Assembly: GCA_040876345.1 (NCBI GenBank)
Contig: JBBDPM010000006.1
Location: 264,547 to 328,546, forward strand
DNA length: 64,000 nucleotides
Direction of reading: 5' to 3'
DNA from: Candidatus Woykebacteria bacterium
Lineage (GTDB): Bacteria > Patescibacteriota > Microgenomatia > Woykebacterales > RBG-16-39-9b
Part shown: one piece after another, positions 12,134-45,169 of the stretch
How the letters are laid out: each line of letters begins with the position of its first letter
Numbering within the stretch: position 1 is the first letter of the stretch
The notes under the pieces: generated by a model
The model's database searches: none
What the model saw: only the letters and a program-made list of their open reading frames with translations
What the model was told of the DNA's origin: nothing
Position numbers and translations under genes: made by a program

Positions 12134-12883
12134 ATGTCCAACTTCAAGAAATTTCAAATATCAAGGCGTGGTTTTACTCTTATCGAGATCCTGATTGCTC
12201 TTGCAATAATTGCCATTCTCCTCACGGTCGGTATCCTTTCTTTTAGAAATGCCCTGCGCCAAGGTAGAGACTCAGAAAAGAAAGCTACGATTAAAGAAGT
12301 CCAATCCGCCCTTGAAGCATATTATGCAGATCATGGGCGTTATCCTATTCACAATAATCCTCCTACCACTCCTGATGATGCTGCAGCAAGTGATTACGGG
12401 GCCTGCGACCCTTCAAGTACTTCGCAATGTTTGGTTGCTACAAACACTATGGAAGTAGATTTCAATAGAGGGCATAATAACTACCAGACAAAAGTTGCGA
12501 AATCTTTCGACGACGCTATTGAGCCTTATTTAGCTGGCGGTCTTCCCGATGCACCCATGGGACCTTTCCAAGGTAACACATATACCAGTGGTTGGAGTTG
12601 GACAGGTTATTTGTATACCTCGAGGGTAGAAGTGTCACCAGGGGTTTGGAGCACAGATGGTAGTACTTACCGGCTTGGTACTTGGCTTGAGAATAACGGT
12701 AGCGGTGGGGGTACTGCCGATCCAGATATAAATAATCCAGTAGGATTTACCCCACCAGGAAACAATGGATCCCAAGCAAGAGCTGGTTTATGTTGTGGTG
12801 GGAACGGACCTGCCGTCTGCAATAAATTTCAATGGGGATGCCTAACAAATTATTTTGTCGGCCCACCCACAGAAGGTTTTTGA
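12134..12883 (+). CDS. Type IV pilin (249 aa)
   Basis: RRG|FTLIEILIALAIIAIL prepilin leader with a hydrophobic N-terminal helix. Confidence 0.8.
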   Translation: MSNFKKFQISRRGFTLIEILIALAIIAILLTVGILSFRNALRQGRDSEKKATIKEVQSALEAYYADHGRYPIHNNPPTTPDDAAASDYGACDPSSTSQCLVATNTMEVDFNRGHNNYQTKVAKSFDDAIEPYLAGGLPDAPMGPFQGNTYTSGWSWTGYLYTSRVEVSPGVWSTDGSTYRLGTWLENNGSGGGTADPDINNPVGFTPPGNNGSQARAGLCCGGNGPAVCNKFQWGCLTNYFVGPPTEGF

Positions 12884-21429: not shown

Positions 21430-21844
21430 AAGGTAACACCAAAGGGTCCGCCTGAACTGCGCGTGCTAGCAAAATTTAAGTCGCTCAAGTGAAATAGATC
21501 GCTACGCGCTCTGCGTTCCTATCCAAACTCGCCTTCGGCTCAAACATGCAATTTACACTAGGTCGCTTTGTTGAATTTTGCCTATACTCATGCTCGTATG
21601 GCGGTTTAAGGGCTTCTCCTTACCGGCCATAGATTAGTCAGCGTGAAGAAACCCTCGATTTTAGCTGGAGGATCTCTGGCCGGCAGTTTGGCTCCACCTT
21701 TGCTGCCAAAGGTGGAAAGTACTTTTTAGCAAAAGCCCTTACCTTCCAAACTTGACACATACCTCTATTTAATGGTATAAAAAAGGTATAATTATACTTA
21801 TTGGTAAAGCTAAAACGAAACTTTACCGATAAGCCCTGCCCAAA

Positions 21845-24800
21845 ATGGAAGACAACCTGCCCAAAGTTGATCTCGCCTTGGGCGAGATTTTTTCGAAATA
21901 TAGGGATTACCTAAAATCCTCCGGGTACTCCAATCCCACTGTAAAGAACTATTTGTCGGATCTTCGCCATCTTATCGCTTGGATTAATGAGCGCTATTCC
22001 GGCTTTTCCTTTGTCTTTCTTACTCTCCCCTCAGTTCGGGCCTACCGAAGTTTTGTTAAGGAAAAATTTCGCTCTAAACCATCAATCTCGGCTCGCCGCC
22101 TCTCATCCCTTCGCAAATTCCTCTCCTGGGCTGGCAATTTAAAATATGTTCCAGAAGATCTAGTAAAAGCGACTGAATATATTCTTTCCGACAAAGAGGC
22201 ACCGACTACTCTACCCCAACCTCAAATAATCTTCCAAGGACCATCAACTGAGCTTAAGGACGAAACCAAAACTCCTCCAGTGCCAGATAAAATACATCAA
22301 AAGCACCATATCAAATACACTCGCCCACTCTGGTATCAGCGTTACCACGAGCACCCTGCTCACCGCGTAATCCACTTCTCCATACTGGGAGTGTTCCTGT
22401 TACTACTTGCAAACCTAATGTTTGGTCAACTCATAGGCGACTTGCTAAAAAGAGAAACTGCGCCGGATCTTGGTAATGTTTTGGCCGCGACTCCACCGAG
22501 GATTCTTTCTTTTCAAGGAAGACTAACAGATGAAAATGATGTACCGGTTTCGACGGCTACCAACATTGTCTTCAGAATATGGGACGACGATCTTGATAGT
22601 ACGGAGGTTGATTGTGATGGCGGCGGTGACGAAGATTGTATGTGGAAGAGTAAAACCTGGTCAGTTACACCAGATCAAAATGGTATCTTTTCTGTCTTAC
22701 TAGGTGATACAAGTCAGTCGGATACCACCATACCGGCTTCTCTATTCTCCGATAATGCTTCACTTTGGCTTGGGGTAAAGGTTGAATCCGACTCAGAAAT
22801 GACTCCTCGCCAACGCATCGCCTCCTCCACTTACGCTCTCAATGCTGATGCGCTTGATGGAGTCGATTCGGTATCATTCCTTCGCTCTGATGCATCGGAC
22901 AACTACACCTCCGGCACCCTTACCATAGATGACGGCACTACCTTTGCCGTCAACTCAACCACAATCGGCATTGGCAATGCTTCTTCAGACGCGGCCACGA
23001 TTAACGCTACCTCTACCTTTAACACTGATGTTAACCTAAGTTTAGCGTCAACTGAAGATTTGGTAATTACAAATACCAACTGGGCACCCGCATCAGGCAT
23101 AGGATTAGTTGATGTCAACGCTACCTCCTCCACCAACGACGCTCGTGGTGTTGACAATTATTTTGATTTAAACAGTACTGGCAGTGTTACTCAATACGGG
23201 TACTATGGAAATTTTGATGCTACCAGCGTAGCCTTGGCCGACGATACCACTTCAAACTACTACGGTATCTACCAGACTGTCAGTAAAACTGGTACCGATA
23301 CGGCCGCAACAACTGCCACAACAACTGGCACCTACGGGATAAGAGCCTCAGCTTCAAACACTTCAGGTACAAATGACGCGGAAATTACCAGGAAAACGTA
23401 TGGAGGCTACTTTTCAGCTGAAAATAACGGAACCGGGAACGGTCAAGCTTATGGGATTTACTCAACGGTGTCTGGAAATGATGACTCATCAGAATCGGAC
23501 TTCGCCTACGCCGGCTACTTCAACGGGGCTCTGAACACAACCTACAACGTTGGTGTGGCTTCCGGTACTGGCTGTTATATTAACATTTGCGACGCCGTGA
23601 CTTCAAACCCTACCGACATCGCCGGCCAAGGCTTCTTTGGAGCCGGCAGGCTAACTGCATTCTCTGCAAAAGTTGATATAAACCACTCATTTACCACTGA
23701 CAGCGCCATTGGTTTGTTAGTCAATACCGGTACTAAAACTTCCGGAACCGTTACCAATAACTATGGTATTAAAGTTGAAAACCAGACCTACGGCAGCACC
23801 GATTATGGTCTTTATATTGCTGGTGCGGAAGATTATGCAATTTACACGGCTGCTGATGACATCAAATTTGTCCAAGCAGCTGCCGACTCCCTAACTATTG
23901 ACGCTGGCACAACGGACAAGACCCAAGACGCAATTTCCCTTGATGTTGATGTTAATAGCACAAATGTAGCTGGAATGTTTGTTGACCTGGATGTTGGTAC
24001 TGCCCTATCTTCTGGAGAAATTGCCGATGGACTCAAAGTAGACGTTGCCGGTAATGCATCGGATAATGCCGCTGCAGCTGTTAATGGTCTTCGCTTGAAA
24101 GGTGCAACTGCCTCTGGAGCTCCTGTAACCGGAGTCAACATTGAAACAGCTTTTGACGTTGATATAGATCTTCAAAATGATGAACAAATACTAAATACTG
24201 CCGATGACGAGATTGAATTCCAATGTGCGCCAGCTGGCAGCTGTACTGCATCTAATGACTTAAGGTTTGACTTAGACGGTACCAATCCTGTCATTGATTC
24301 GCCTACGGACACAATAATACAGATAAACGATACTCTGATGATTGATCTAGCTGGTAACGCTAGTGATGAGGCCATCTGTGGAGACAATGCTGAGGATGAT
24401 ACGACGGATGTTATGGTAAACGATTGTACCACTGGTTCTACTGAAGATTACGCCGAATTCTACTCAGTTGAGCCCAATACAACGTACGGCCATATTGTTT
24501 CTGCTGGAGATGAGTATATTACAACAACTAAGCATAAACTAGATCCGCAAACTCACACTTTCGTCAAATTAGTCAAAGCTCAAAAAGGCAGTAACCGCAC
24601 TATGATTGGGATAGTTAGTAATAACTACAGCGATTTTAGTGTTACAGGTGACAGGATAAAGCCAGAAGACAACCCCTTTCCTATCGCTCTAAATGGGCGA
24701 GTGCCAGTATTTGTAACCGATGAAAATGGATCAATCGAAGTCGGGGACCGAATAACTTCTTCTTCAACTCCGGGTGTGGGTATGAAGGTTGATGATCAAA

Positions 24801-25363
24801 CCGAACAAACGATTGGTATTGCTCTTTCTGCTTTCGATGAGCGTGGTCAGGGTAGCATTATTGTATTTGTAAATATCGGTTGGAATTTTATTGATCTTGA
24901 CCAAGAAACCCGAATAAAAAACCAGATAACCGAATACCTAACCGGTATCGACCATTTGAATATGAAAAACCTTAAAGCTGAAACCATAAGCATTGGCGAA
25001 AACAAAATTTCGCTGGACGATGAAGGTAATTTAAGAGTTGATGGAAATCTTGTTGCAAAGGGTGATGTAAAAATTGAGGGTAACTTAACTTTAGACGGAA
25101 GTTTTTCAGCTAAAGAGATCAAAACGGAAAAATTGGGCTTGGGTGAAAAATCAACTGGAACGGCAACTCTACGCAAAGGAGAAACAAGGGTTGAAATTGA
25201 AGCATCGGAAATATCCGAAAACTCGTTGGTTTTTATCACCCCAACCTCAAGAACTTATGATGTGCTAACAGTGATTGAGAAAAAGCCTGGGGAGGGCTTT
25301 GTCGTTGAAGATTACTTCCCCGCTGAAGAAGACATCCACTTCAACTGGTTCTTTGTAAATTAG
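21845..25363 (+). CDS. Giant membrane-anchored surface protein (1172 aa): cytoplasmic XerD/integrase SAM-like N-domain, single TM, S/T/G/D-rich ectodomain, conserved C-terminal module
   Basis: The N-terminus (PTVKNYLSDLRHLIAWINERY...LSSLRKFLSWAG) matches the phage-integrase N-terminal SAM-like core-binding fold. TM is HFSILGVFLLLLANLMFG. The C-terminal module (PIALNGRVPVFVTDENGSIEVGDRITSSSTPGVGMKV...IVFVNIGW, then ENKISLDDEGNLRVDGNLVAKGDVKIEGNLTLDG) is shared with the 1730-aa protein and with the c-subunit fusion protein. Confidence 0.8.
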   Translation: MEDNLPKVDLALGEIFSKYRDYLKSSGYSNPTVKNYLSDLRHLIAWINERYSGFSFVFLTLPSVRAYRSFVKEKFRSKPSISARRLSSLRKFLSWAGNLKYVPEDLVKATEYILSDKEAPTTLPQPQIIFQGPSTELKDETKTPPVPDKIHQKHHIKYTRPLWYQRYHEHPAHRVIHFSILGVFLLLLANLMFGQLIGDLLKRETAPDLGNVLAATPPRILSFQGRLTDENDVPVSTATNIVFRIWDDDLDSTEVDCDGGGDEDCMWKSKTWSVTPDQNGIFSVLLGDTSQSDTTIPASLFSDNASLWLGVKVESDSEMTPRQRIASSTYALNADALDGVDSVSFLRSDASDNYTSGTLTIDDGTTFAVNSTTIGIGNASSDAATINATSTFNTDVNLSLASTEDLVITNTNWAPASGIGLVDVNATSSTNDARGVDNYFDLNSTGSVTQYGYYGNFDATSVALADDTTSNYYGIYQTVSKTGTDTAATTATTTGTYGIRASASNTSGTNDAEITRKTYGGYFSAENNGTGNGQAYGIYSTVSGNDDSSESDFAYAGYFNGALNTTYNVGVASGTGCYINICDAVTSNPTDIAGQGFFGAGRLTAFSAKVDINHSFTTDSAIGLLVNTGTKTSGTVTNNYGIKVENQTYGSTDYGLYIAGAEDYAIYTAADDIKFVQAAADSLTIDAGTTDKTQDAISLDVDVNSTNVAGMFVDLDVGTALSSGEIADGLKVDVAGNASDNAAAAVNGLRLKGATASGAPVTGVNIETAFDVDIDLQNDEQILNTADDEIEFQCAPAGSCTASNDLRFDLDGTNPVIDSPTDTIIQINDTLMIDLAGNASDEAICGDNAEDDTTDVMVNDCTTGSTEDYAEFYSVEPNTTYGHIVSAGDEYITTTKHKLDPQTHTFVKLVKAQKGSNRTMIGIVSNNYSDFSVTGDRIKPEDNPFPIALNGRVPVFVTDENGSIEVGDRITSSSTPGVGMKVDDQTEQTIGIALSAFDERGQGSIIVFVNIGWNFIDLDQETRIKNQITEYLTGIDHLNMKNLKAETISIGENKISLDDEGNLRVDGNLVAKGDVKIEGNLTLDGSFSAKEIKTEKLGLGEKSTGTATLRKGETRVEIEASEISENSLVFITPTSRTYDVLTVIEKKPGEGFVVEDYFPAEEDIHFNWFFVN

Positions 25364-27980: not shown

Positions 27981-28667
27981 ATGTATAAAGCCTTGCCTTT
28001 CTTTATATTTGGACTGACAATTCTATTAATACCCTCCTCTGTTTGGGCTTTTGGTTCTTCGTCAACAAATTACACACTGGACGCTGAATTTGGGAACTGG
28101 GCTGGATCTAAATCTAGTACAAACTATAACTTAACGGATACTGGTGGTGGGTTTGCTGTTGGGTTCGGGAGCAGCGCAAATTATGGAACCGGCAGTGGTT
28201 TCCAGTATGTGCTAGCCGAGATTCGCGAGATGACAGTTACACTATCGAGTAATTCCATAAATCTTGGGACACTAAGCACCGGAGCCGTTACAACGGCTTC
28301 AAATTCAATTGAGGTAGATACAAATGCCGCTGGCGGCTACCAAGTAACAGTGCTAGATGACGGTAATTTACGCACTGGAGCTGGTGCCGACATTAACGAT
28401 GTTTCCGGTGGAACAGTTGGCTTAGGAAGCGAAGAATATGGTCTTGCAACCTCGCAATCCGGTCAAACTATTACTCAAGATGCCTCATGTGGCCCTGATC
28501 CAGATAATGCAAGCGCCATTACAACCTCAGCTCAACTAGTAGCTTCATCATCCCTACCTATAGAAGATGACGCCACCATTCTTTGTTATTCAGCTTCAAT
28601 ATCTGGGTCAACTTCAGCTGGGTCTTACTCTCACGTTTTAACGTACATAACAACAGGTACATTCTAA
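27981..28667 (+). CDS. Secreted S/T/G-rich surface protein (228 aa) with a conserved C-terminal module ...AGSYSHVLTYITTGTF
   Basis: Signal peptide MYKALPFFIFGLTILLIPSSVWA. The C-terminal ~50 aa are paralogous to the next gene. Confidence 0.7.
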   Translation: MYKALPFFIFGLTILLIPSSVWAFGSSSTNYTLDAEFGNWAGSKSSTNYNLTDTGGGFAVGFGSSANYGTGSGFQYVLAEIREMTVTLSSNSINLGTLSTGAVTTASNSIEVDTNAAGGYQVTVLDDGNLRTGAGADINDVSGGTVGLGSEEYGLATSQSGQTITQDASCGPDPDNASAITTSAQLVASSSLPIEDDATILCYSASISGSTSAGSYSHVLTYITTGTF

Positions 28668-28686
28668 TTGACAAAGTTTTTGGTTT

Positions 28687-29787
28687 ATGAAAAAATCATT
28701 AGACAGGATGCTTAAACGCACAGTTGCAATCTTAGTCTTATTGACAATAATAGCCCTTCCCTTTTCATTCAATAAGGATGTTCAAGCTGCATCTCACACA
28801 GCTATATCTGATACTTTATCACGTCTCCAAGACACAACTACAGCCAACCACACAATTCAGTTTGATCTCGCAACCGCTTGGGATGATACGGAAGCTCTTG
28901 TAGTAGATTTTGTCGACGGTGATGGTTTTAGCACGGCCGGTTTTGCTAATACTGAAGCCGAAGATTTTGATATTACTTGGGAAGGAGCTGAGCAGACTAT
29001 TGTGGCCGCCGGTGGTTGTAGTGGAGCTGCCATTGAGATAGAAGTTACCACTGTAGACACAACTACTGATACCTTTACCTTCACCCGCTGCACTGGTGAT
29101 GCTGATTCAGCCGCCAATGACACTGTGGTTATTGAGATTGGTACCAACGCAACCGCAGGCAGCGCTGGTAATGACCAAATTGTAAACGCTACCAGCTCTG
29201 GGAGTAAAACAGTATCGCTAACCGGTCCGACTTCTGGAGATAGCGCTCAATTTGCTCTGGCCATAATGAGTGGGGATCAGGTTACCGTCTCAGCAACTGT
29301 TGATCCATCAGTTACTTCTTCGCTAAGTGCCTCAACCTGTACTTTGGGTACTCTAGTCTCAAGTGCAATCAATTTTTGTTCATACACCAATACGGTTTCG
29401 ACAAACGCAACCAGCGGCTACGCATCCACTATAGTTGAAAACGGAAATCTTTGTTCTCCTTCCGTCGCCGTTTGTACAAATACCGTAGATGATGCAGCTG
29501 GAGATAACGACGTGGATCAAGCTAGTGAAGAATATGGAGTCTCTAGCAACGACACTACAGGTACTCAAGACATTATTGATAGTACTGGATGTGATGACAG
29601 TGGAGTTGTTGAAGCAGCCAGCGCAATTACAACAAGTGCCCAGGTTTATGCTGACAGCGGTGATGGCGATACTGGGCCAGTTTCGGGCGCGGTTACCACT
29701 GTTTGTCACTCGGCTTCTGTAAGTGGTACTACACCGGCCGGAAGTTATAGTCATATTGTCACTCACATTACGACTGGTACTTTTTAA
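28687..29787 (+). CDS. Secreted S/T/G/D-rich surface protein (366 aa), paralog of the preceding gene, same C-terminal module ...AGSYSHIVTHITTGTF
   Basis: Signal peptide. Shared ASAITTSAQ...C.SAS.SG.T.AGSYSH..T.ITTGTF ending. Confidence 0.7.
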   Translation: MKKSLDRMLKRTVAILVLLTIIALPFSFNKDVQAASHTAISDTLSRLQDTTTANHTIQFDLATAWDDTEALVVDFVDGDGFSTAGFANTEAEDFDITWEGAEQTIVAAGGCSGAAIEIEVTTVDTTTDTFTFTRCTGDADSAANDTVVIEIGTNATAGSAGNDQIVNATSSGSKTVSLTGPTSGDSAQFALAIMSGDQVTVSATVDPSVTSSLSASTCTLGTLVSSAINFCSYTNTVSTNATSGYASTIVENGNLCSPSVAVCTNTVDDAAGDNDVDQASEEYGVSSNDTTGTQDIIDSTGCDDSGVVEAASAITTSAQVYADSGDGDTGPVSGAVTTVCHSASVSGTTPAGSYSHIVTHITTGTF

Positions 29788-29794
29788 TTAACAA

Positions 29795-30868
29795 ATGACT
29801 GCTCAACTGCCTAGTAAGAAAGTATTAATAGCCCTTTTAACAACAGTGTTTGCGCTGGCAACCCTCAGCTCTACTCTATTCGCTCAAGAATCTGACCAGA
29901 AAGAAGAAGCTGCTGAAGGTAGCGTGGGTATTCAAATATCCGCCCCTATCTATAACTTCGAAATAGACCCCGGTAAATCGGCTCAGGAAATAATCAAAGT
30001 GCGCAATGTCTCTAATATTGTACACACTTTTTACCCAGAAGTTTTTGACTTTAAACCAAAGGACGAAACTGGAACTCCGGAATTTTTAATTGGCGATCAG
30101 AGCAACTCTTATGGGTACTCGCTCGCCTCTTGGATAAAAATCGCCCAGGAAGGCATAAAACTCGCTCCAGATGAATCAGCGGCTTTGAATTTCACCATAA
30201 ATGTACCAGCCGATGCCGAGCCAGGTGGTCATTACGCCGGAGTATTGTTTGGCACTTCAGCACCAAAAGTGGGCGGAAGCCAAATTGGAATATCAAATAA
30301 AGTTGGCTCGCTTATCTTAGTGAGAGTTGCCGGAGACGCGAAAGAGTCAGCAAATATTAAAGAATTCACCACCTCAACGAATTTTTATGAGCAAGGGCCA
30401 GTCCCATTTACAGTCAGAGTGGAAAACACGGGCAACGTTCACGTTATACCAAAAGGCGTAATTGAGATCAAAAATATTTTTGGTAGTTCAGTAGCTACAC
30501 TTAACGTTAATGAGAAAGATGGCAGCCTACTTCCAGAGAGCATCCGCGCCTTTATGGATAAAGATGGTAACAAAATTACCTGGAGTCCAGATAGTCTAAC
30601 GATTGGAAGGTTTACGGCAACCTTAAACTTAACCTACGGTGATCCTGCTAAAAATCTAACCTCGAGCGTCACTTTCTGGGTGGTGCCTTGGAAAATATTA
30701 CTCGTAATTCTACTTGGTCTAATAATAATAATTCTTATGATTATCTTCCTAGTTAAAAAGTACAATCGCTGGATTGTTTCGCGAGCGACGAATAATGCGT
30801 CTGGACCGGGGCAAAATCCACCAACAAGGAATAGTCAAGGCGGGCCTGCCTCCCCACCGATAGGCTGA
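29795..30868 (+). CDS. Cell-surface protein with signal peptide and C-terminal TM anchor (possibly DUF916/CscA-like)
   Basis: Signal peptide, a beta-rich ectodomain (ISAPIYNFEIDPGKSAQEIIKV...GGHYAGVLF...VGSLILVRVAG), C-terminal TM ILLVILLGLIIIILMIIFLV, then a positively charged, Pro-rich tail. Confidence 0.55.
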   Translation: MTAQLPSKKVLIALLTTVFALATLSSTLFAQESDQKEEAAEGSVGIQISAPIYNFEIDPGKSAQEIIKVRNVSNIVHTFYPEVFDFKPKDETGTPEFLIGDQSNSYGYSLASWIKIAQEGIKLAPDESAALNFTINVPADAEPGGHYAGVLFGTSAPKVGGSQIGISNKVGSLILVRVAGDAKESANIKEFTTSTNFYEQGPVPFTVRVENTGNVHVIPKGVIEIKNIFGSSVATLNVNEKDGSLLPESIRAFMDKDGNKITWSPDSLTIGRFTATLNLTYGDPAKNLTSSVTFWVVPWKILLVILLGLIIIILMIIFLVKKYNRWIVSRATNNASGPGQNPPTRNSQGGPASPPIG

Positions 30869-31473
30869 TGAGAGCTTTCTCCTCTTTAGCTTCAGTTTTG
30901 CTAGCTTTCATACTAGTTTCTCCAATATATGCTCAAGATGTGGACGTTGGTGGTACGGTGGATAAAGAAAACCCAACTGTCTTAATAACTAACCCGATCA
31001 ATGGATCAACCGTATCAGGAACTATAAATGTTACTGCAAACGCTTCGGATGATGTAGGGGTCTCTAAAGTAGAATTTTACGTCGATGGCGATTTAGTTGT
31101 TACCGACACAAGCGCACCTTATGGATTCGGTCTAGACACAAAAACCTTCTCTAACGGCTCTCACACGCTTCTGGCAAAGGTTTATGACACCGTTTCCAAA
31201 ACCGCTACTGATAGTGTTACTTTCAAGACAGCTAATAAAGTGACTCTTGAATCACCAACAAAACGGATACAAGAGCCAACCATCGGCCCGCCAAAGGTAG
31301 CCACGAAGTCAACTGGGGAGGGTAGAAAAACCACCTTAGTCCAAATACCGGAAGAGGAAAAGGAAGGAGGCCCGTCTAATAATCAACGGGATTTTATTTT
31401 AGGGCTTATCATTGGAGTTGAGATTTTTTCGGTCCTACTCTTAATTTATCTACTACGCAGAAGGAAAACTTAA
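30868..31473 (+). CDS. Surface protein with a bacterial Ig-like domain and C-terminal TM anchor
   Basis: Signal peptide. Ig-like segment VSKVEFYVDGDLVVTDTSAPYGFGLDTKTFSNGSHTLLAKVYD. C-terminal TM ILGLIIGVEIFSVLLLIYLL plus RRRKT. Start overlaps the stop of the previous gene. Confidence 0.6.
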   Translation: MRAFSSLASVLLAFILVSPIYAQDVDVGGTVDKENPTVLITNPINGSTVSGTINVTANASDDVGVSKVEFYVDGDLVVTDTSAPYGFGLDTKTFSNGSHTLLAKVYDTVSKTATDSVTFKTANKVTLESPTKRIQEPTIGPPKVATKSTGEGRKTTLVQIPEEEKEGGPSNNQRDFILGLIIGVEIFSVLLLIYLLRRRKT

Positions 31474-31752: not shown

Positions 31753-34006
<2,254 letters not shown>

Positions 34007-34010
34007 AATT

Positions 34011-35498
34011 TCAAACTACTGTGTTTTGGATTCTTGAATATAGAATTTGCTCAATTTTCTCTCGGTTTGCTCCTAGATAGTTTTCTAGAGCCTCAACATC
34101 TTCAAACTTTTGCAAATCTGCCACAACACTTTCAAAGGCACATTTCGCAAAGGCCTCGACGAGTTTTGTCCTCTCAACCCGCACTTGCTCAATATTTTTA
34201 CTAGACCAATAATCTGAAAATGCGAGGCCAACAAGTATAAGTGCAACATCTTTCGGTATCACGGTGTATGTCTCTTGATCAAATATAGCCTCGAGTCGCT
34301 CTCCAATATTTAAGTCCGATCTTGTTTTGAGTGGAAGATCAAAGCCAAAATGTGAAAGCTCCTGGGCTTTGCGATAAAGGTTGAGTTTTTCAACAAGAGC
34401 TCTTCTTATTTTTTGCTCTAGCATATTTTGGGTTTGATTGCCAACTCTTGTTACTGAAAGAGAGGTATTTACCGCGGGCCTTCTTCCCTTTTTAAATTCT
34501 GCCTCGTCAAAGAAAATATGACCGTCCGTCATAGCCATAGAATTTGTTGGTAAGTAACCGGTTAAGTCGCCTTGGACTGTTTCAACTACTGGCAAGGCTG
34601 TGATACTGACTGAACCACTCCCGTATTTGATCCTACCGGCTCTCTCAAGAATTTTTGCGTGGATGTGAAAAATGTCGCCCGGGTAACTCTCCCTGGCTGG
34701 CATCTTTTTAGAAAGTAGAGAAATTTCCCGGTAAAATTTTGCGTGGTTTGTAAGGTCATCCAAAACAATTAGTACATCTTTCCCCAAATCTCGAAAATAC
34801 TCCGCTAAAGTAAAGGCGGAGTAAGGCGCAAGATAAACGAGGGATGCGGGATCAGCTGACGACGCAAATACAATAACACAGTTTCCCAAAATCCCAGTTT
34901 TCTGAAGATAATCCTCAATACTTTTAATATCCGATTTTTTCTTTCCAATTCCAACATAGATACAAATAGTACCTTTTTTTGCCTGGTTGTAAATTGTCTG
35001 GAGCAAAAAAGTGGTCCTTCCAGTTTTTTGATCCCCAAGAATAAGCTCCCTTTGACCCTTGCCTAAGGGAATCATATAGTCAACTATTGCTACACCAGTC
35101 TCAAGCTGTTCTGAAATTTTAACCCTTTCCTGAATCCCTGGCGCTTTATTGAATACAGGCCTAGACTCTTTCTCCCCCATTGCTGGACCAAGGCCGTCTT
35201 GGGTATTCATAAGGGGTCCAACAACCCTACCTAACAAATTTTGTGATACCTGGATCTTCATATTCTCTCCGGTTCTTGCAACTCTTTCCCCTATTACGGG
35301 TAGATCGCTCTCCAAAAGAATTACCTCTACAAGTTCTGGGTCGATAGATTGAACAATACCTTTCTTTCCAGTCTCAGTTATTACTACCTCAGAAAGCTTA
35401 GCCTTAGGCAGACCGGAAAGATAAATGACTGTATTTAAAACACTCTCCACTCTACCGATTTCTTGAGTTTCCCTTAAGTAGTCGTCGAAGGTTTTCAT
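34011..35498 (-). CDS. atpA: ATP synthase F1 alpha subunit
   Basis: Walker A ELILGDQKTGRTTFLLQTI. 495 aa. Confidence 0.95.
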   Translation of the reverse strand: MKTFDDYLRETQEIGRVESVLNTVIYLSGLPKAKLSEVVITETGKKGIVQSIDPELVEVILLESDLPVIGERVARTGENMKIQVSQNLLGRVVGPLMNTQDGLGPAMGEKESRPVFNKAPGIQERVKISEQLETGVAIVDYMIPLGKGQRELILGDQKTGRTTFLLQTIYNQAKKGTICIYVGIGKKKSDIKSIEDYLQKTGILGNCVIVFASSADPASLVYLAPYSAFTLAEYFRDLGKDVLIVLDDLTNHAKFYREISLLSKKMPARESYPGDIFHIHAKILERAGRIKYGSGSVSITALPVVETVQGDLTGYLPTNSMAMTDGHIFFDEAEFKKGRRPAVNTSLSVTRVGNQTQNMLEQKIRRALVEKLNLYRKAQELSHFGFDLPLKTRSDLNIGERLEAIFDQETYTVIPKDVALILVGLAFSDYWSSKNIEQVRVERTKLVEAFAKCAFESVVADLQKFEDVEALENYLGANREKIEQILYSRIQNTVV

Positions 35499-35950
35499 GA
35501 AAAAGCCCCCTTAACTTTCTCTTTTACAACTTGGTCCAGTATTGAAGCGTAAGAATAATCTCGGAAATTTCCCATAAACTCGATGGTTGCACCCGCCAAT
35601 AAGTCTCTCTTTACCGTAATTTCCAGTACTAAGTGATCACTCCTCCCTACATTTAGTAGTCGGGATATCTTCCTAATAAATTCTTCGTTTGGCTCAAAAG
35701 CAAATTCAAGCCGAGCCTTTGGTAATTTGACGAGAAAGTCTTTTAAGTTTTTCAGCTTTTTAGCTAAATCTTCTTCGGGTGGTTCCCTGTTACCCTCAAT
35801 CCCAAGCTCCTTTAAAACTTCGGGAACGCCTGGATTTACCTCTGCAAGGTTCGTCCTTGCAGATTCACCTATCTTCGCTATTTGGTAAAGCAAATCATTG
35901 AGCTCCTTTGTTGTATATATTTTTGCTATAACTTCTCTCGAGAGTTGCAT
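35495..35950 (-). CDS. atpH: ATP synthase delta (OSCP) subunit, short
   Basis: Operon position and a delta-like C-terminal pattern (LLAGATIEFMGNFRDYSYASIL). 151 aa. Confidence 0.65.
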   Translation of the reverse strand: MQLSREVIAKIYTTKELNDLLYQIAKIGESARTNLAEVNPGVPEVLKELGIEGNREPPEEDLAKKLKNLKDFLVKLPKARLEFAFEPNEEFIRKISRLLNVGRSDHLVLEITVKRDLLAGATIEFMGNFRDYSYASILDQVVKEKVKGAFS

Positions 35951-35952
35951 GC

Positions 35953-36627
35953 CTACAAAAACCTTTCATTTTTGGCGCGCTCGAGTGCCTTAAGTACAAG
36001 CTCTTCGTGTTTACCTGTATCAACCGATTGCTCAATAGTTTCTCTAGCAACATCAGAAACCACCAGGAATATCTTCTGATCAAGATCATTTTTCACCTTT
36101 TCTTTATAAGAGGAGAGTTCTTGGTTGACCTTACCTCTCTCCTCGATAGTGGCCTTGATAAGCTCCTCTCGCAGCCTGCCAATCTCAAGCTGGATGGAAG
36201 ACTTGGCACCGGCCACTACTTTACCAAACTCAGAGTTTTGAACTTGGGCTAAATTCTCAAATTCTTTTTTATAAGATTCTGTGATAGTATTTATTATATT
36301 TTGAAATACTTCAGAATCTTTTGATATAGTATCCCTAACTAACGCCTCTGCTTTGGCGTTTAATTCTTGCCTCATTTGCTCCCCCACATCCTCTACACTC
36401 TTGAGTTCTTCTAGGGTCTCTTCCACCGTATCTTTAGATTCCTCAAGCGCTTCGCTCAAGACCTTTTTCTCTTTGCCGACAACTCTATTTCGAAGTTTCA
36501 ATATCCTTCTTAGAAATGGTGTTAAATCGGCTAAATTGCGTTGAGTTTGATATAAACTAAAAAGGAGCAATAAAACAATGAGATTTAGGAAAATTGATCC
36601 TATTAATAGTATTTGTAAGGTGTCCAT
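35953..36627 (-). CDS. atpF: ATP synthase Fo b subunit (long, 224 aa)
   Basis: Single N-terminal TM LLIGSIFLNLIVLLLLFSLY followed by a long charged coiled coil. Position upstream of atpH. Confidence 0.7.
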   Translation of the reverse strand: MDTLQILLIGSIFLNLIVLLLLFSLYQTQRNLADLTPFLRRILKLRNRVVGKEKKVLSEALEESKDTVEETLEELKSVEDVGEQMRQELNAKAEALVRDTISKDSEVFQNIINTITESYKKEFENLAQVQNSEFGKVVAGAKSSIQLEIGRLREELIKATIEERGKVNQELSSYKEKVKNDLDQKIFLVVSDVARETIEQSVDTGKHEELVLKALERAKNERFL

Positions 36628-37540: not shown

Positions 37541-40500
37541 TTGACAAATCTTCCAGGAAATTTCATAATTTTAGGTAGAGTTTCCCGTGACGGGAAAGCC
37601 TACCTCCCGTGGGAAACCAAGTTCCAATCTCTGCCAATGGAACCGACTAAATTAGAGGGCCAAACATTACTGCCATACTCTGAAATCATTACCCTTGCTA
37701 AGAAGGTGGGTGTTGATTTTGGTAAAGGCTATCCCTACAATAGGCTCCGCTACTACACCAAAATCGGTCTTTTACCCCGCGCGCAAAGAAAATCTTTTGG
37801 TGCATCACCTGAAGGGTGTTACCCCTCTTGGGTTGTCGATAAGTTAGTTGATGTAGACCGAAAGCTAAAAAGTGGCGCAACAATCCAAGCAATTCTCCGG
37901 GAAGAAAGTGATCCAAAGACTAACCCTGTAACAAACCTTGAACCAATAACTTTAACTCCGGCTTACGGAGTTTACCCAAACCTCCTTGCCCAATCCGAAA
38001 TCGATCATAGATCGTCGATAGTCGATAGTCGAACTTCGAACATCGACCATCCAACATCCTGGTTTCCCTTCTTGGGTAAAACCCTCGCCTACTCTACTTT
38101 ATTATTAATAATACTAGGTGCGTCCCTAGTGAGCGCTTACTTTTGGCCACCGACTCATCAAGGGTTGAGAAATATAGCTGCCAATTTAGGCACGAAAGAT
38201 TCAATTTCCCGTGACGGGAAAGATATTTCCCGCTCCGCCAACCTCCTAAGTGACAAAGTTGGATCGGTACTTGGCCGGGCCACTTCCCCATTCCTTAAGA
38301 TAAATGTTGAAACTGAGATGGATAAACTCCTGTCCGCAAACGGCGGCATTGTAACTAATGGTGCAGATGTTAACCTCGGAGATGGTCAATTAACCGCTTC
38401 GAATGTTATTTACGATATTGTAGCTGGTGAAAATGTGACTGTGGGTACTGGTCAAACTCCAACTATCTCTGTACCAGACATTACCGCTGGAATTGGATCT
38501 GTAAGTGGAACAGCCGGAAGAATCACATCCACTGGAGGTGATAACCCTGCTATAAATATTGCTAGCAACTACGCGGGTCAGACTTCCATCAATACTTTAG
38601 GTACTATCACAACTGGCAATTGGAATGGATCAGTAATATCCGATGCCTTCATCAACAATAACCTAACGATATCTTCTTCCGGCAGTGTTGCCTGGTCAGC
38701 GCTAAATAGCTACCCTGCTTCTTGTGGAGCCGGTGAATTCGTTCGAGCAGTCGGCGACGCTCTTACTTGTGTTGCCGAGTCTGGTGGTGTCCCAACAACC
38801 AGAACTTTAACAGCCGGGGCTGGTCTGAGTGGTGGTGGCGATCTTTCGGCGGATAGAACTTTTGATGTTGGTGCGGGTAATGGAATTACGGTAAATGCTA
38901 ACGACGTAGAAGTCAACGCGAACGCGGCCGATTTTGAATTTGTGGCCGGGGTTTTAAATATTGCCGCTGGTGCAATTGAAGATGATGAGGTGGATGATGA
39001 TATAACTATTAGTTCATCTGGCAGTGTTGACTGGAGTGCGCTAACGGGTTACCCTGCAGATTGTTCTGCTGGATCTGCCCTAACCGGGTTTAATGACGCA
39101 AACCCCGACACCTTTGATTGCGATGCGGATTTTGTGGAAAGCAACGTCGCGGAAACTATTACCGGTGGTTGGGTCTTTAATACCAACCCAACAACATTCG
39201 ATACTGATGCCACTTTTAACGCTGGTATAATTGCTAGTGCGCTTTCGGGAGCAGCCGGTACTGCCTTGTGTATTGATGGGACCGATAACATAGTTACTTG
39301 TAATGCAGGTTCCTCTTCCGCTACCCTGCAAAGTGCCTATGACGCTGGTAATTCTATCACCACAGCCGATGCAGATGGCAGCATACTCTTTAACTTGGCT
39401 GACACTGCTGCCGATCAAGATTTCATTGTTGATATTTTAGGAACCGGGAATACTTTTGAAGTTCGGGATAATAACTCCCCTATTCTTTCAGTGGCCGACG
39501 GCGGAACAGTCGGCATCACCGGTACCTTGGACGTTTCTGGCCACGGTGCTTTTGGAGGAGGCGGAAGCGTTTTAAGCTCTCGAATTCTTAATGTAAGTGA
39601 AACTTTCACAACAGGTGGTGCTAGAGGGCTGGTAGTTAATCCTACGTTTAACCCAAGCGCCTTAACCACCGTTCGTTCCTTCGATAACACACCTACATTT
39701 GGCCCAACTGGAGCAAGTACTATTACAATGGTGGGCGATTACGTCAAAAGTACTGTCGGTGGTTCCAATACAGGTGCTGGAACGAGTCTTTACAACTCCT
39801 ACATTGACTCGCCAACAATTGGAGGCACAACAGTTGTCAACAATTATGGCCTTTATATGGCTGATCAAAGTGGTGCCACAAACAATTACGCACTATACCA
39901 AACCGGAACAAGCGCCACCAACATATTGAACGCCAACACCAGAATTGGCTCTACTACTATCCCTGCAGCGACTTTAGATATAGCTGGGACTTTGCTCGCT
40001 GATTCTGATGTTACTCTCAGTCATTCTGGAACAGAAAATTTGGAAATTATATCTACTAGTTCAACTGATATGATTAACCTTGCTATATACGCACACGCAT
40101 CCGCCCTGGCTGGTGCCAAGACTGGGATTCTAATCTCCAATGCTGGGGGAGGATTTCCTGAAGGTCTTGACATAGGACTTAATGTCACAAATGTAAATGG
40201 TCTTGATATGCCAGACGGTATATTAATCGACTCATCTTCTGGAACTTATACAGATGCCATTGATGTTTCAGATTCTGACATTGTGAATGCCCTGAACGTA
40301 GGTAGTAACGTAATTTTAGGAACCACACCAACAATTGATTTCACTAATTTTGATGTTTCTAGCGGTGGGCAGCTTACATTTACTGGCGTCTCAACGGATA
40401 TTACTACGGGGGCAAACGAAGATTTAACTCTTTCACCAAACGGTACTGGTGACATTATATTGTCCACTGATGGAGATACTTCGGCAATTCTATCTTCCTT

Positions 40501-42733
40501 CGCTAATAACAATGGGGTTGTTTACACTAACGGTTCTGGGGTGCTAGCTCAAACAGCTACTGGTGGGGCGGGAACGCTTTGTCTAACATCTGCTAGTGGT
40601 GCCGCGCCGCTTTGGAGTGCTTGCTCTGGTTCGGCCGCTACAGCCTGGTCCTCATTAACAGCCCCTAGTGGAAGCCTCTCAATTGCTCATGCGGCTAATA
40701 CAACCAGCTTCACATTCAATTCTGTAACCAGTGGAACAGCCTGGACCCAAAGCTCTACTTCTTTAACCACCGGGATACTTAACCAAGAATCCTTCACTTC
40801 AGCACTTGCTGCAACCGGAACTACTACTGGTTTAAGAATTAGCCCTACAATCGCGGGTACTGCTGCAGCTAACACTTACACTATCAACGCTCTAGACCTA
40901 GCTGCTATAGCGGGGTCTTGTCCAGCCACTGCTACCTGCCGAAACAACGCCATGAACATTGGATCTTACGCCATCGCCGATGCTGACCAAACTTCAGTTG
41001 CCATAAATATCGCGGATCAATACAACGCCACGGGCACCCACTACGGGATCTGTTTTGATTGTGATGGGACTTATAGTAATGCGCAGGCAGCAAATGGTAT
41101 CAACTGGGGTAATGATGCCAATAGTGTCGATCTTTATCGATCTGATTTAAATACTTTGAAAACTGATGACACCTTTGAAGCTAGTCCAATACTAACAGAC
41201 ACCTCTGGAGTGAAATGGGGAGGTATATTAAATGCTGATATACGACCCACAGCTGATTCCTCCGGGACATTTAGTGGCGTCATAGGTCAAGCTCAAATAT
41301 TGATTGGTACAACAGTTGATTTAACCGCAGATGTGTCCGGGGTGAAAGGTTCCATAAGACCTGTGTTTAGCACCACGAGTGGATCGGTAACTTGGGCTAA
41401 GGGAGTGGCCGGCGTTTTTGACGGTGCGGCCAATGTGAGCATAAACTTCACCAATTTTGCAAACTTTCACGCAAAGGATCCTACACTTGGAGGCGCTACA
41501 ATTACTAATAGCTACGGTCTTTATCTCGAGCCTCAAACTCAAGCTACGAATAATTACGGCATTTGTTTTGATTGTGACGGTACTTTCGGTACTCAAACAG
41601 TCGGTACAGGAATCCGCTGGGGTACAGATGCTACCACTGCAAATAATGTTCAGCTTTACCGAAGTGCTGATGGAACTGCCCTACTTGAGCTTGGCGACGG
41701 AACTGATTTAATTTCAGCAGCCGCAGCTACTTTCTCGCTCAATTTGGACAACACCACCTCAAGGACAGAACGGCTTTGTCACGGTGGCGGAGACGCCGGA
41801 ACCGGAATTGCCGCCATATCGGATTGCTCAGGAACCCCAGGAGATTACGCTGAAGAGTATGGTACTGCTGATTCTTCCATCGAAGCTGGTGATTTAGTTG
41901 CGGTCGATTCTAACCGCCAGGCTCAAGGTGTAGTTAATGACGGTCAACTAGGTTCAAAAGCTTGGGTGTTGAAGTCGAAAGAATCCTACGAGCCAAGCTT
42001 AATCGGAGTTGTTTCCACAAATCCAAATGAAGTGATTGGTAAGAATTTTAACTCAAGTGAAAATCCGAGGCCAGTAGCTTTAAATGGTAGAGTTCCTCTT
42101 AAAGTTTCTTCTGGGAACGGCTCTATCGCTCCAGGCGACCCATTAACAAGTTCGTCTACCCCAGGAGTGGCTATGAAAGCCACAAAGAGCGGGGCGATTG
42201 TTGGAAAAGCCTTACAGTCCTACGATGGATCCGGTGTTGGTAAGATAATTGCCTTTGTCTCTGTGGGGTGGTATGTAGAACCAATACAGACAAATGGCGA
42301 GGGGCAAGTAACAAGTTTAGAGGGCTCACTTATTAACTCACTAACTATCAACTCGATACAAATTGGTGAGAACAAACTAGGTTTGGACAACCAAGGAGAC
42401 CTGCGATTAGATGGAAACTTAGTGGTGGCTGGGGATATTAATATTAGTGGAGATCTTGCCTTAACCGGTGATTTAGTTGCTTCAAGCGTTAAGACAGATG
42501 AACTCAAGATAAGCGATAAGACCTCGGGATCTGGAGAGATACTGGCTGGCAAATCCTTTGTCGCTATAGAAAATGTGAAATTAACCAAAGACTCAAAAGT
42601 TGTAACAACCTTTACTTCTGATTGGGCAGGGGCAACACGCTACTGGATTACTAAAGAAGATGGGAAGTTTGAGGTTCACACGGACCAATCCGTAACCTCT
42701 AATGCTAGCTTTGATTGGATCATAATAAATTAA
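37541..42733 (+). CDS. Giant membrane-anchored surface protein (1730 aa): cytoplasmic MerR-like HTH N-domain, single TM, huge ectodomain, conserved C-terminal module
   Basis: N-terminal LPYSEIITLAKKVGVDFGKGYPYNRLRYYTKIGLLPRAQRK...SWVVDKLVDVDRKLKSGATIQAI matches the MerR-family HTH plus wing. TM is LAYSTLLLIILGASLVSAYFW. The C-terminal module (PVALNGRVPLKVSSGNGSIAPGDPLTSSSTPGVAMKATKSGAIVGKALQSYDGSGVGKIIAFVSVGW ... ENKLGLDNQGDLRLDGNLVVAGD) is shared with the 1172-aa protein. Confidence 0.8.
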   Translation: MTNLPGNFIILGRVSRDGKAYLPWETKFQSLPMEPTKLEGQTLLPYSEIITLAKKVGVDFGKGYPYNRLRYYTKIGLLPRAQRKSFGASPEGCYPSWVVDKLVDVDRKLKSGATIQAILREESDPKTNPVTNLEPITLTPAYGVYPNLLAQSEIDHRSSIVDSRTSNIDHPTSWFPFLGKTLAYSTLLLIILGASLVSAYFWPPTHQGLRNIAANLGTKDSISRDGKDISRSANLLSDKVGSVLGRATSPFLKINVETEMDKLLSANGGIVTNGADVNLGDGQLTASNVIYDIVAGENVTVGTGQTPTISVPDITAGIGSVSGTAGRITSTGGDNPAINIASNYAGQTSINTLGTITTGNWNGSVISDAFINNNLTISSSGSVAWSALNSYPASCGAGEFVRAVGDALTCVAESGGVPTTRTLTAGAGLSGGGDLSADRTFDVGAGNGITVNANDVEVNANAADFEFVAGVLNIAAGAIEDDEVDDDITISSSGSVDWSALTGYPADCSAGSALTGFNDANPDTFDCDADFVESNVAETITGGWVFNTNPTTFDTDATFNAGIIASALSGAAGTALCIDGTDNIVTCNAGSSSATLQSAYDAGNSITTADADGSILFNLADTAADQDFIVDILGTGNTFEVRDNNSPILSVADGGTVGITGTLDVSGHGAFGGGGSVLSSRILNVSETFTTGGARGLVVNPTFNPSALTTVRSFDNTPTFGPTGASTITMVGDYVKSTVGGSNTGAGTSLYNSYIDSPTIGGTTVVNNYGLYMADQSGATNNYALYQTGTSATNILNANTRIGSTTIPAATLDIAGTLLADSDVTLSHSGTENLEIISTSSTDMINLAIYAHASALAGAKTGILISNAGGGFPEGLDIGLNVTNVNGLDMPDGILIDSSSGTYTDAIDVSDSDIVNALNVGSNVILGTTPTIDFTNFDVSSGGQLTFTGVSTDITTGANEDLTLSPNGTGDIILSTDGDTSAILSSFANNNGVVYTNGSGVLAQTATGGAGTLCLTSASGAAPLWSACSGSAATAWSSLTAPSGSLSIAHAANTTSFTFNSVTSGTAWTQSSTSLTTGILNQESFTSALAATGTTTGLRISPTIAGTAAANTYTINALDLAAIAGSCPATATCRNNAMNIGSYAIADADQTSVAINIADQYNATGTHYGICFDCDGTYSNAQAANGINWGNDANSVDLYRSDLNTLKTDDTFEASPILTDTSGVKWGGILNADIRPTADSSGTFSGVIGQAQILIGTTVDLTADVSGVKGSIRPVFSTTSGSVTWAKGVAGVFDGAANVSINFTNFANFHAKDPTLGGATITNSYGLYLEPQTQATNNYGICFDCDGTFGTQTVGTGIRWGTDATTANNVQLYRSADGTALLELGDGTDLISAAAATFSLNLDNTTSRTERLCHGGGDAGTGIAAISDCSGTPGDYAEEYGTADSSIEAGDLVAVDSNRQAQGVVNDGQLGSKAWVLKSKESYEPSLIGVVSTNPNEVIGKNFNSSENPRPVALNGRVPLKVSSGNGSIAPGDPLTSSSTPGVAMKATKSGAIVGKALQSYDGSGVGKIIAFVSVGWYVEPIQTNGEGQVTSLEGSLINSLTINSIQIGENKLGLDNQGDLRLDGNLVVAGDINISGDLALTGDLVASSVKTDELKISDKTSGSGEILAGKSFVAIENVKLTKDSKVVTTFTSDWAGATRYWITKEDGKFEVHTDQSVTSNASFDWIIIN

Positions 42734-45015: not shown

Positions 45016-45092
45016 GGGCCTGTGGCGCAATTGGTTAGCGCGCCTCCATGGCATGGAGGAGGTTAGGGGTTCGAGTCCCCTCAGGTCCACCA
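45016..45092 (+). tRNA. tRNA-Ala (anticodon GGC), CCA encoded
   Basis: Cloverleaf: acceptor GGGCCTG/CAGGTCC with the G3:U70 Ala identity pair. D-arm GCGC..GCGC. Anticodon stem CCTCC/GGAGG with loop ATGGCAT (GGC). T-arm AGGGG-TTCGAGT-CCCCT. 3' ACCA. Confidence 0.85.
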
Positions 45093-45169
45093 TGGGCCTG
45101 TTTGATTCTTACGAATCCTGTGCTCTTAAAGAGCTGATGCTCAGTTGGCTAGACCTGCCTGCCGCTAAA

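Follow-up and report, generated by a model that had tools for sequence, protein, structure and literature searches.

Introduction

The regulators ToxR, TcpP, CadC and PsaE each consist of a cytoplasmic N-terminal DNA-binding domain, a single transmembrane (TM) helix and an extracytoplasmic domain, and RsgI-type anti-sigma factors are built from a cytoplasmic regulatory module, a single TM helix and an extracellular recognition domain. Here we describe a gene for a 1172-amino-acid (aa) protein for which the layout of the ToxR group is predicted. The gene lies in a 64-kb stretch of DNA (hereafter the window; positions 264,547 to 328,546 of contig JBBDPM010000006.1, assembly GCA_040876345.1) from a Candidatus Woykebacteria bacterium, a member of the Microgenomatia within the Candidate Phyla Radiation (CPR). 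Its N-terminal domain (the head) is homologous to the core-binding (CB) domain of tyrosine recombinases and is followed by a TM helix and a very large, fibre-like C-terminal region. A second giant protein with the same C-terminal module is encoded further downstream in the window.

Bitopic DNA-binding membrane proteins and tail-fibre-like surface proteins are both already known. CPR bacteria (Patescibacteria) are mostly uncultured episymbionts with few classical regulators, and their host sensing and attachment are an open question. The Pam pilus of CPR bacteria is built from donor-strand-exchange pilins with membrane-anchored chaperones, and one protein, called 'tail fibre-like protein', is co-localised in these genomes with the pam pilus operon and with ATP synthase genes (Troman et al., bioRxiv 10.64898/2026.03.03.709456). 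A recombinase CB head on a TM-anchored giant fibre was not described in the literature searched, of which this preprint alone bears on the locus.

Results

The head is a recombinase core-binding domain and the catalytic domain is absent

A first-pass annotation, made from the sequence of the window, had assigned the N-terminal ~110 residues of the 1172-aa protein to the SAM-like CB fold of phage integrases and had seen no catalytic domain behind them. Both assignments were borne out. The Pfam profile PF02899 (Phage_int_SAM_1) matched residues 18-96 with 30.0 bits for the full protein and 35.4 bits for residues 1-120 (gathering score 22.3 bits), with PF13495 and PF13102 giving weaker matches. 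Searching the PDB with a profile of 41 head domains of the family returned XerA (5hxy), XerD (1a0p) and two N-domains of integrases that stand alone, 2key and 3nrw. An AlphaFold2 (AF2) model of residues 1-130 had a mean predicted local distance difference test score (pLDDT) of 90.7, with helices at residues 12-25, 30-50, 61-74, 79-98 and 104-113. The top Foldseek matches of this model were all integrase CB domains, the best being 3nrw (TM-score 0.76, root-mean-square deviation (rmsd) 2.4 Å), with further matches to XerA, IntI, Cre and the CB domain of lambda Int. Among PDB sequences, the head profile matched best to chain 14 of 9i5v, a 401-aa chain that is XerC-like over residues 3-109 and was deposited as 'Ribosome-associated translation inhibitor RaiA'; rather than pointing to a functional link, this entry probably reflects a gene model in which XerC and RaiA are fused.

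Across the 41 domains, conserved residues cluster at the start of helix B (T32, K34, N35, Y36, D39) and of helix D (R84, S87, S88), and the motifs in which they lie, T-x-K-N-Y..D-L and R-x-L-S-S-L-R-x-F, are shared with tyrosine recombinases. In the Cre-loxP and lambda Int-core complexes helices B and D enter the major groove. The head carries a net charge of +8, and the family-wide median isoelectric point (pI) of heads is 9.19 (n=92).

No match to the catalytic domain (Phage_integrase, PF00589) was found in the 1172-aa protein with Pfam even at E<=1. NCBIfam models for XerC, XerD and XerA were matched in the N-terminal ~110 of their ~295 positions only; those for XerC and XerD were covered at positions 2-112, scoring 38 and 29 bits where the cut-offs are 335 and 330. 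After residue 115, the linker, TM helix and ectodomain occupy the place of the catalytic domain (Table 1). Because the defining catalytic domain is absent, the protein is not a tyrosine recombinase and its head cannot recombine DNA. The names 'site-specific integrase' and 'XerD' given to members of this family in databases are therefore misannotations.

Table 1. Positions of features of the two giant genes and their surroundings within the window.
Feature	Position	Strand	Basis or remark
Hairpin/palindrome with perfect 10-bp arms, TCCACCTTTG-CTGC-CAAAGGTGGA, followed by T-rich run	21693..21716	+	Terminator-like; insulates the gene from the upstream region
Promoter-like site: TTGACA (21752-21757), 18-nt spacer, TATAAA (21776-21781)	21752..21781	+	Read directly from sequence
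Candidate operator GGTATAA-AAAA-GGTATAATTATACT (element GGTATAAAAAAGGTATAATTATACT)	21774..21798	+	Near-palindrome of the second half-site lies over predicted transcription start
Whole gene, bitopic surface protein	21845..25363	+	1172 aa, ATG start; GenBank label 'site-specific integrase'
SAM-like CB domain, residues 12-113, five helices, predicted cytoplasmic, pI 9.8	21878..22183	+	Profiles, PDB search, AF2/Foldseek
Pro/Thr-rich linker, residues 114-174, ending in basic-aromatic juxtamembrane motif HQKHHIKYTRPLWYQRYHEHPAHR	22184..22366	+	Sequence
Single TM helix, residues 175-197 (VIHFSILGVFLLLLANLMFGQLI)	22367..22435	+	Hydropathy
Post-TM membrane-proximal domain, residues 206-345 (..ILSFQGRLTD..PDxNGIFSV..EMTPRQRIA..YALNA)	22460..22879	+	Family-defining, conserved ~140 aa
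Hypervariable T/A/D/G/S/N-rich fibre region, residues 346-835, two short-loop Cys pairs	22880..24349	+	Composition, alignment
C-terminal module (C-module), residues 836-1172, common to both giants	24350..25360	+	Pairwise and family alignment
Invariant motif D868-Y-A-E871	24446-24457	+	Family alignment
Terminal beta-sandwich, residues ~1102-1172	25148-25360	+	AF2 model
pam-operon-like cluster: two secreted pilin-like paralogs, chaperone-like and Big_7 proteins	27981..31473	+	Conserved neighbours
F-type ATP synthase genes (beta, gamma, alpha, delta- and b-like)	31753..36627	-	Conserved neighbourhood
Second giant: putative MerR-type helix-turn-helix (HTH) head, TM ~185-205, different fibre, same C-module	37541..42733	+	Listed as 1730 aa

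The gene start and the upstream unit

The first-pass annotation had left room for the N-terminal region being a mis-called extension with the true start downstream. Homologs of the 1172-aa protein start at the same position with the same sequence, the region just upstream contains a promoter-like site and a terminator-like hairpin, and this entire upstream unit is kept in two other Woykebacteria genomes. The start is therefore not mis-called. Upstream of relatives a TTGACA plus a -10-like box is likewise conserved; our promoter scanner had passed over the site in the window, as it demands a T at position 6 of the -10 hexamer. The gene for leucyl-tRNA synthetase (LeuRS) is the divergent upstream neighbour, and the giant gene is an independent transcription unit. 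At the hairpin, the block GGCAGTTTGG..CCACCTTTGCTGCCAAAGGTGGAAA is nearly invariant among the window and the related loci L002 and L006. The identical protein was found on 6 contigs, one of them a 586-kb contig of the metagenome-assembled genome (MAG) GCA_040881185.1, on which its NCBI name is 'site-specific integrase [Candidatus Woykebacteria bacterium]'.

The ~290-bp intergenic stretch between the LeuRS gene and the giant gene (window 21430-21720) is partly conserved over three Woykebacteria and ends in an invariant block, GGCAGTTTGG(C/T)(T/G)CCACCTTTGCTG(C/T)CAAAGGTGGAAA. It had no match in Rfam, at the gathering score or at E<=1, and may represent either a palindrome bound by a protein or a small RNA together with its terminator. 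Instead of a Shine-Dalgarno sequence, CTGCC(C) precedes the ATG by 1-4 nt in the 1172-aa gene (CCTGCCCAAAATG) and in many relatives. In a Woykebacteria relative (GCA_040876265.1), a frameshift at a C9 homopolymer breaks the gene between the SAM-like head and the TM helix (L002 8413-8421, L003 6739-6747). It is identical in one NCBI and one Logan assembly, and could represent slipped-strand phase variation that uncouples the head from the fibre, or a shared sequencing error.

A modular family of giant proteins

A full-length search recovered 86 relatives of 700-2050 aa from CPR MAGs. Hidden Markov model and hydropathy scans showed that most of these have one or, more commonly, two tandem SAM-like domains, a single TM helix and the post-TM domain, which stands directly behind the TM helix in 84 of the 86. 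With the head profile as query, an exhaustive HMMER search over 1.84 billion representatives found 285 clusters (50% identity) at E<=1e-30, with lengths of up to 6048 aa; the best 150 of the 285 all contained tandem N-terminal SAM-like matches. Loci were counted by searching for the post-TM domain in one genome per GTDB species, which confirmed 244 loci. The best 80 of these 244, to which all counts out of 80 given here refer, were overwhelmingly from Microgenomatia (Woyke-, Levy-, Shapiro-, Roizman- and Beckwithbacteria, CPR3), with complete open reading frames (ORFs) of 368-3724 codons. Their heads comprised at least two full SAM-like domains (40 loci), one (16), a partial domain (12) or none (8), the remaining 4 being N-terminally truncated. 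A full SAM-like head was thus present in 56 or more of the 80 loci, invariably at the extreme N-terminus. The plan of the family is a head of one to three SAM-like domains, of one or two excisionase/MerR-type HTH domains, or no head at all, followed by the TM helix, the post-TM domain, a variable fibre and the C-module. The modular family that the first-pass annotation had suspected from two proteins therefore extends to hundreds of relatives with exchangeable heads.

In four relatives (P0016, P0019, P0021 and P0023) the juxtamembrane motif, TM helix and post-TM domain are those of SAM-type proteins, and the head consists of one or two excisionase/MerR-type HTH domains. The juxtamembrane motif is kept in SAM-type and HTH-type relatives alike. 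HTH heads of close relatives scored 51 bits with MerR and 32 bits with HTH_17, and at locus L087 an HTH-type gene occupies the syntenic slot of the SAM-type gene of L002. Since an excisionase/MerR HTH replaces the head independently, at orthologous loci and in the mini-proteins described below, the selected property would be nucleic-acid binding.

The second giant of the window had been taken to carry a different DNA-binding-type head. The SAM-like head of the 1172-aa protein stands; for the second giant, the MerR match in Pfam is sub-threshold taken alone (E 0.0013, 18.9 bits against a cut-off of 28.2, 16 residues covered). However, its head region is 59% identical (E 1e-19) to CPR proteins of 221-229 aa that have precomputed PF13411 (MerR_1) matches and are named MerR regulators at source, and the MerR-type call rests on this homology. 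These small proteins are mini-versions of the giant, in which a MerR HTH and a TM helix are combined with a short ectodomain and the terminal beta-sandwich of the giants. The TTG listed as the start of the second giant (37541) is the first base of the -35 box in a promoter-like TTGACA-17-CATAAT (window 37541-37640); its start is likely ATG 37637, which is preceded by CTGCC and would give ~1698 aa.

The gene directly downstream of the second giant (window 42787-44979) encodes a 730-aa protein of the Wzy_C (O-antigen ligase-like) kind with TPR repeats at its C-terminus, a homolog of which occurs in L002 and in 10 of 80 related loci. This neighbour hints at glycosylation or polymer attachment linked to the fibres.

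Split heads

In at least 10 species the head is divided between two genes. A small soluble upstream protein comprises one complete SAM-like domain and, from a second, profile positions ~3-45, and the giant protein starts at profile position ~50, so that the break always falls in the loop between helices B and C. The two genes are adjacent, sometimes with overlapping start and stop codons; elsewhere they are separated by variable, selfish-looking ORFs. The arrangement is a gene fission, which would imply that the soluble module physically associates with the cytoplasmic stub of the fibre. The existence of the head as a separate soluble protein fits a regulator.

Membrane anchor and predicted topology

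The only hydrophobic segment of the 1172-aa protein (Kyte-Doolittle maximum 2.34, residues 175-193) coincides with the TM helix that the first-pass annotation had placed near residue 180, and ~95% of the 80 relatives have a TM helix at the equivalent place. No signal peptide precedes the head, which for this reason is predicted to remain inside. The C-terminal 970 residues are acidic (pI 4.05, net charge -89), and all 8 cysteines (8/8) are located after the TM helix as four close pairs. The natural reading of charge, cysteine placement and the missing N-terminal signal peptide is an N-in/C-out topology, consistent with the cytoplasmic location originally proposed for the head.

Repeats upstream of the giant genes

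The candidate operator upstream of the 1172-aa gene contains two direct GGTATAA half-sites, the second of which forms a 14-bp near-palindrome (GGTATAAT/TATACC). The palindrome GGTATAATTATAC occurs once in the window against 0.01 expected. GGTATAA-N4-GGTATAATTATAC(C) is common to the SAM-type genes of Woykebacteria and lies upstream of the orthologs in L002, L006, L010 and L014. Genes of the Levybacteria type have 2-3 tandem GTATAAT units at 9-bp spacing, and a third group of genes has the element GTATAACT-N15-AGTTATAC.

In 1.2 Mb of sequence, GTATAAT-N2-GTATAAT (<=1 mismatch) was found 53 times. All 53 were on the strand of the giant gene and none (0/53) were on the opposite strand or before unrelated genes, which rules out a generic promoter. 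Of these tandems, 36 lie within 300 bp of a giant ORF and most others directly upstream of stand-alone SAM-like ORFs. A GTATAA-type repeat precedes 52 of the 72 ORFs that begin with a full SAM-like domain. In contrast, three HTH-type genes have no GTATAA-type repeat; there, a tandem 10-mer (ACAAATCTATACAAATCTATG) abuts the start codon and is found nowhere else in 1.24 Mb. The class of cis-repeat thus co-varies with the class of head.

The fibre region and the C-terminal module

The post-TM domain had no match in Pfam or in the PDB profile search. The fibre region behind it (residues 346-835) is essentially unique, with 2 relatives aligning to its first ~85 residues only. Small genes for four-helix bundles (23S_rRNA_IVP/bAvd-like) occur directly downstream of giants (sites at L004 12964-13340, L086 5519-5881 and 10993-11337, and L088 4348-4920) and also in the gaps of split SAM-like genes (L017, L021, L033, L042). 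Avd is an accessory protein of diversity-generating retroelements. As to such an element being the cause of the hypervariable fibre, no reverse transcriptase was seen in the relative loci that bear Avd-like genes, and no Avd-like gene stands beside the 1172-aa gene in the window.

Over residues 842-1172, the 1172-aa protein shares 33% identity (E 6e-47) with residues 1410-1730 of the second giant. The two proteins had been credited with the same ectodomain and C-terminal architecture. This holds for the last ~330 aa, but the rest of the ectodomain differs and the family-defining post-TM domain is absent from the second giant. The C-module contains the barrel core 'GRVPV.V..ENG.I..GD.lTSSS.PGvgMK'. 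PDB entry 3gqh, the cleaved auto-chaperone fragment of phi29 gp12, gave a sub-threshold match (E 0.089) in which the D-x-A-E motif aligns with residue 1 of the fragment, and a match to K1-lyase_C (E 3.6e-4) was below the cut-off of that profile. The 1172-aa protein itself had no match to Peptidase_G2 or Peptidase_S74 in Pfam, and several relatives did (PF11962 or PF13884). The AF2 model of the C-module monomer was confident for the last ~70 residues only. In Foldseek this terminal sandwich matched 7eea (E 3.6e-3, probability 1.0, 72 residues, rmsd 2.4 Å), as well as the pyocin R2 fibre and K1 lyase, which likens it to the distal domains of phage tailspikes and fibres. It is therefore reasonable to call the ectodomain tail-fibre-like, the phage links of the 1172-aa protein being sub-threshold.

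A 276-aa ORF on the minus strand (window 36629-37459) heads the atp operon in the position of the c-subunit gene and encodes a signal peptide. Its product has a barrel core, 'GVV..G.A.VKVS..NG.I..GD.iT.S..PGvG.KAT', as in the C-module of the giants (E 7e-9), and a C-terminal two-helix hairpin with an 'AIGRNP' loop that recalls ATP synthase subunit c, with no match to ATP-synt_C in Pfam. Homologs were found in 8 of 80 loci. Neither this product nor either of the giant proteins had a match in PHROGs.

Gene neighbourhood

Downstream of the 1172-aa gene lies a cluster resembling the pam operon. It encodes two pilin-like paralogs of 228 and 366 aa with C-terminal ends '..GSYSH.LT.ITTGTF', a secreted, chaperone-like protein of 357 aa with a C-terminal TM helix and a weak WxLIP_PGBD match, and a 201-aa protein with a Big_7 domain and a C-terminal TM helix. 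Homologs of the cluster adjoin the giant gene in most related loci, among them L002, L004, L005 and L087. A gene like that for the 357-aa protein occurs in 62 of 80 loci, including 23/23 of the loci of at least 18 kb, and one like that for the 228-aa protein in 47 of 80. Judged by neighbourhood, taxa and fibre features, the giants are very likely the tail fibre-like protein reported beside the pam operon. Elsewhere in the window, a 249-aa protein (12134-12883) has a type IV pilin N-methylation motif (PF07963), and two tRNA-Ala genes (GGC and CGC anticodons; 45016-45243) lie between the Wzy-TPR gene and obg.

Discussion

We propose that the 1172-aa protein is a type-II (N-in/C-out) membrane protein of Woykebacteria with a different function on either side of the membrane. 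Outside, it would form an appendage like a phage tail fibre or tailspike, made up of the membrane-proximal domain, the hypervariable fibre and a chaperone-like C-module with its distal beta-sandwich, and probably serving host or surface recognition. Inside, it would carry an exapted tyrosine-recombinase CB domain that has lost its catalytic domain and may still bind DNA through helices B and D. The whole would act as a membrane-tethered one-component DNA-binding protein with the logic of ToxR and CadC; we give DNA binding at the membrane an even chance. The likeliest target of the head would be the GGTATAA repeat and palindrome over its own promoter (GGTATAAAAAAGGTATAATTATAC), and the state of the fibre (assembly, load or host contact) would be coupled to transcription. 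Autoregulation through the GTATAA repeats is put forward tentatively, and we would not call it probable. In some lineages, the split variants may hold a regulator at the fibre by domain complementation.

A fuller version of this proposal would be a family-wide Microgenomatia signalling device assembled from domesticated phage parts. In it, a fibre would be joined by a TM helix to a CB head (interchangeable with an HTH) that binds the repeats of its own promoter; in some lineages a free module would dock through a split four-helix bundle, and host contact would sequester or release a transcription factor without any kinase. As a whole this remains a doubtful scenario.

Several points weigh against the reading as a DNA-binding fibre. 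In recombinases, binding by the CB domain is cooperative with that by the catalytic domain, and the CB domain by itself may bind weakly. Family-wide, the positive-inside signal at the TM helix is only moderate (2.47 vs 1.76 K+R), and on the outer side the C-module monomer was modelled poorly (pLDDT 59.6) and the links to phage proteins are sub-threshold. The co-variation of repeat and head is as autoregulation predicts, but the same pattern would arise if promoter, 5' untranslated region and the sequence coding for the head had been exchanged or passed on together, and gene fission leaves the promoter with the 5' (SAM) half of necessity. The repeats overlap -10-like TATAAT boxes and may be an unusual promoter architecture only, and the GTATAAT tandem could in particular be the promoter architecture of this gene family alone. 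Moreover, 20 of the 72 SAM-first ORFs have no recognised repeat, and no simple correlation was found between the arrangement of the repeats (direct, palindromic or spaced inverted) and the number of SAM-like domains.

The main rival is that the head is a module for protein-protein interaction or assembly, which would oligomerise the fibre at its cytoplasmic base or dock a partner from the cytoplasm, and for which recombinase ancestry is irrelevant. The two or three tandem SAM-like copies in most family members and the want of a catalytic partner domain speak for such a role, as does the split of the second SAM-like domain at the B-C loop in at least 10 species, as a four-helix bundle could thereby form between two polypeptides. 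It is weakened by the repeated substitution of the head with excisionase/MerR HTH domains, which are known for DNA binding alone. Polar and basic residues conserved in helices B and D, and heads that are consistently basic, also argue against it. We regard it as unlikely to be the sole role, and it is compatible with DNA binding.

Rather more improbable in our estimate, and a refinement of the DNA-binding fibre rather than a replacement for it, is a partner switch in which the fibre holds a DNA-binding regulator at the membrane, covalently or by split complementation, and a surface signal releases it by proteolysis or dissociation. Anti-sigma factors, Mlc-PtsG and Notch-type signalling provide analogues. 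Fused and split forms coexist with an identical break point, the split genes are adjacent or translationally coupled, the genes of the small soluble proteins have a GTATAAT tandem of their own upstream, and long flexible Pro/Thr-rich linkers connect head and TM helix. However, neither a protease gene nor a cleavage motif was found near the TM helix.

We think it very unlikely that the protein is a non-regulatory membrane anchor for DNA, positioning the chromosome or locus for co-transcriptional insertion, handling incoming DNA or modulating a recombinase that acts in trans. CB domains recognise the core sites of recombination, and the GGTATAA/TTATACC palindrome is shaped as two inverted arms. 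CPR bacteria also depend on DNA uptake, and comEC and comEA lie two genes away from the giant gene in L004. Yet this adjacency to competence genes is seen at one locus only, the 64-kb window contains no tyrosine recombinase gene (the SAM profile matches the 1172-aa ORF only), and inverted repeats that might flank an invertible element were not seen.

An artefact could take the form of a wrongly assigned start, a chimeric assembly or the chance fusion of a decayed integrase gene with the gene for a surface protein. It might be suspected from the GenBank name and the C9 frameshift between head and TM helix in L002 and L003, but its probability is negligible given the identical protein on 6 contigs, the conserved start and promoter, and the recurrence of the architecture, always with the head at the extreme N-terminus, in at least 285 clusters and at least 56 of the 80 GTDB species loci.

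If the favoured reading is true, hundreds of giant fibres with heads of DNA-binding type would form a direct link between cell surface and genome, and this would be the first clear case, in the literature searched, of a tyrosine-recombinase CB domain exapted without its catalytic domain. The signalling scenario, if true, would amount to a bacterial relay from contact to transcription without kinases. The correction of the 'site-specific integrase' and 'XerD' labels also matters, as they make mobile elements in CPR genomes appear more numerous than they are. The reagents that the family offers are a domain of 110 aa, a candidate operator of 25 bp and naturally occurring variants with fused, split or swapped heads. 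What appears to be new is the recombinase CB head, its interchange with excisionase/MerR heads, the split-domain forms and their coupling to giant fibres in CPR bacteria.

Compared with described systems, the giants share features with several. They share with the pam-associated tail fibre-like protein a neighbourhood of pilin- and chaperone-like and ATP synthase genes, an occurrence in Microgenomatia and a fibre-like ectodomain; in the preprint that protein is a node in a neighbourhood network, with no mention of an integrase/SAM-like or HTH head, a TM helix or domain swaps. Set beside phage fibres of the phi29 gp12, Peptidase_G2 and S74 kinds, the D-x-A-E motif falls at the start of the cleaved phi29 gp12 fragment in the alignment, relatives match the G2 or S74 profiles, and the terminal sandwich recalls the distal domains of tailspikes and pyocin fibres, the matches of the 1172-aa protein itself being sub-threshold. 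However, phage tail fibres sit on the virion, whereas the giants are anchored in the cell membrane by their own N-terminal TM helix. Tyrosine recombinases (XerC, XerD, XerA and phage integrases) have a CB domain homologous to the head in sequence and fold, but they are soluble, cytoplasmic proteins of ~300-400 aa. Unlike them, the giants have no RHRY active site, and behind their head, often in tandem, come a TM helix and a giant region outside the cell. The split giants resemble the sequestration of regulators by RsgI-type anti-sigma factors; there the cytoplasmic head binds a sigma factor, whereas that of the giants is of DNA-binding type and has no sigma factor partner in the locus. The predicted layout is that of the ToxR type, with which the giants would share the principle of an outside domain coupled to DNA without a phosphorelay. 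ToxR-type proteins combine an OmpR-type winged HTH with a small periplasmic sensor, whereas the giants combine a CB or excisionase/MerR head with a fibre of 1,000-6,000 aa.

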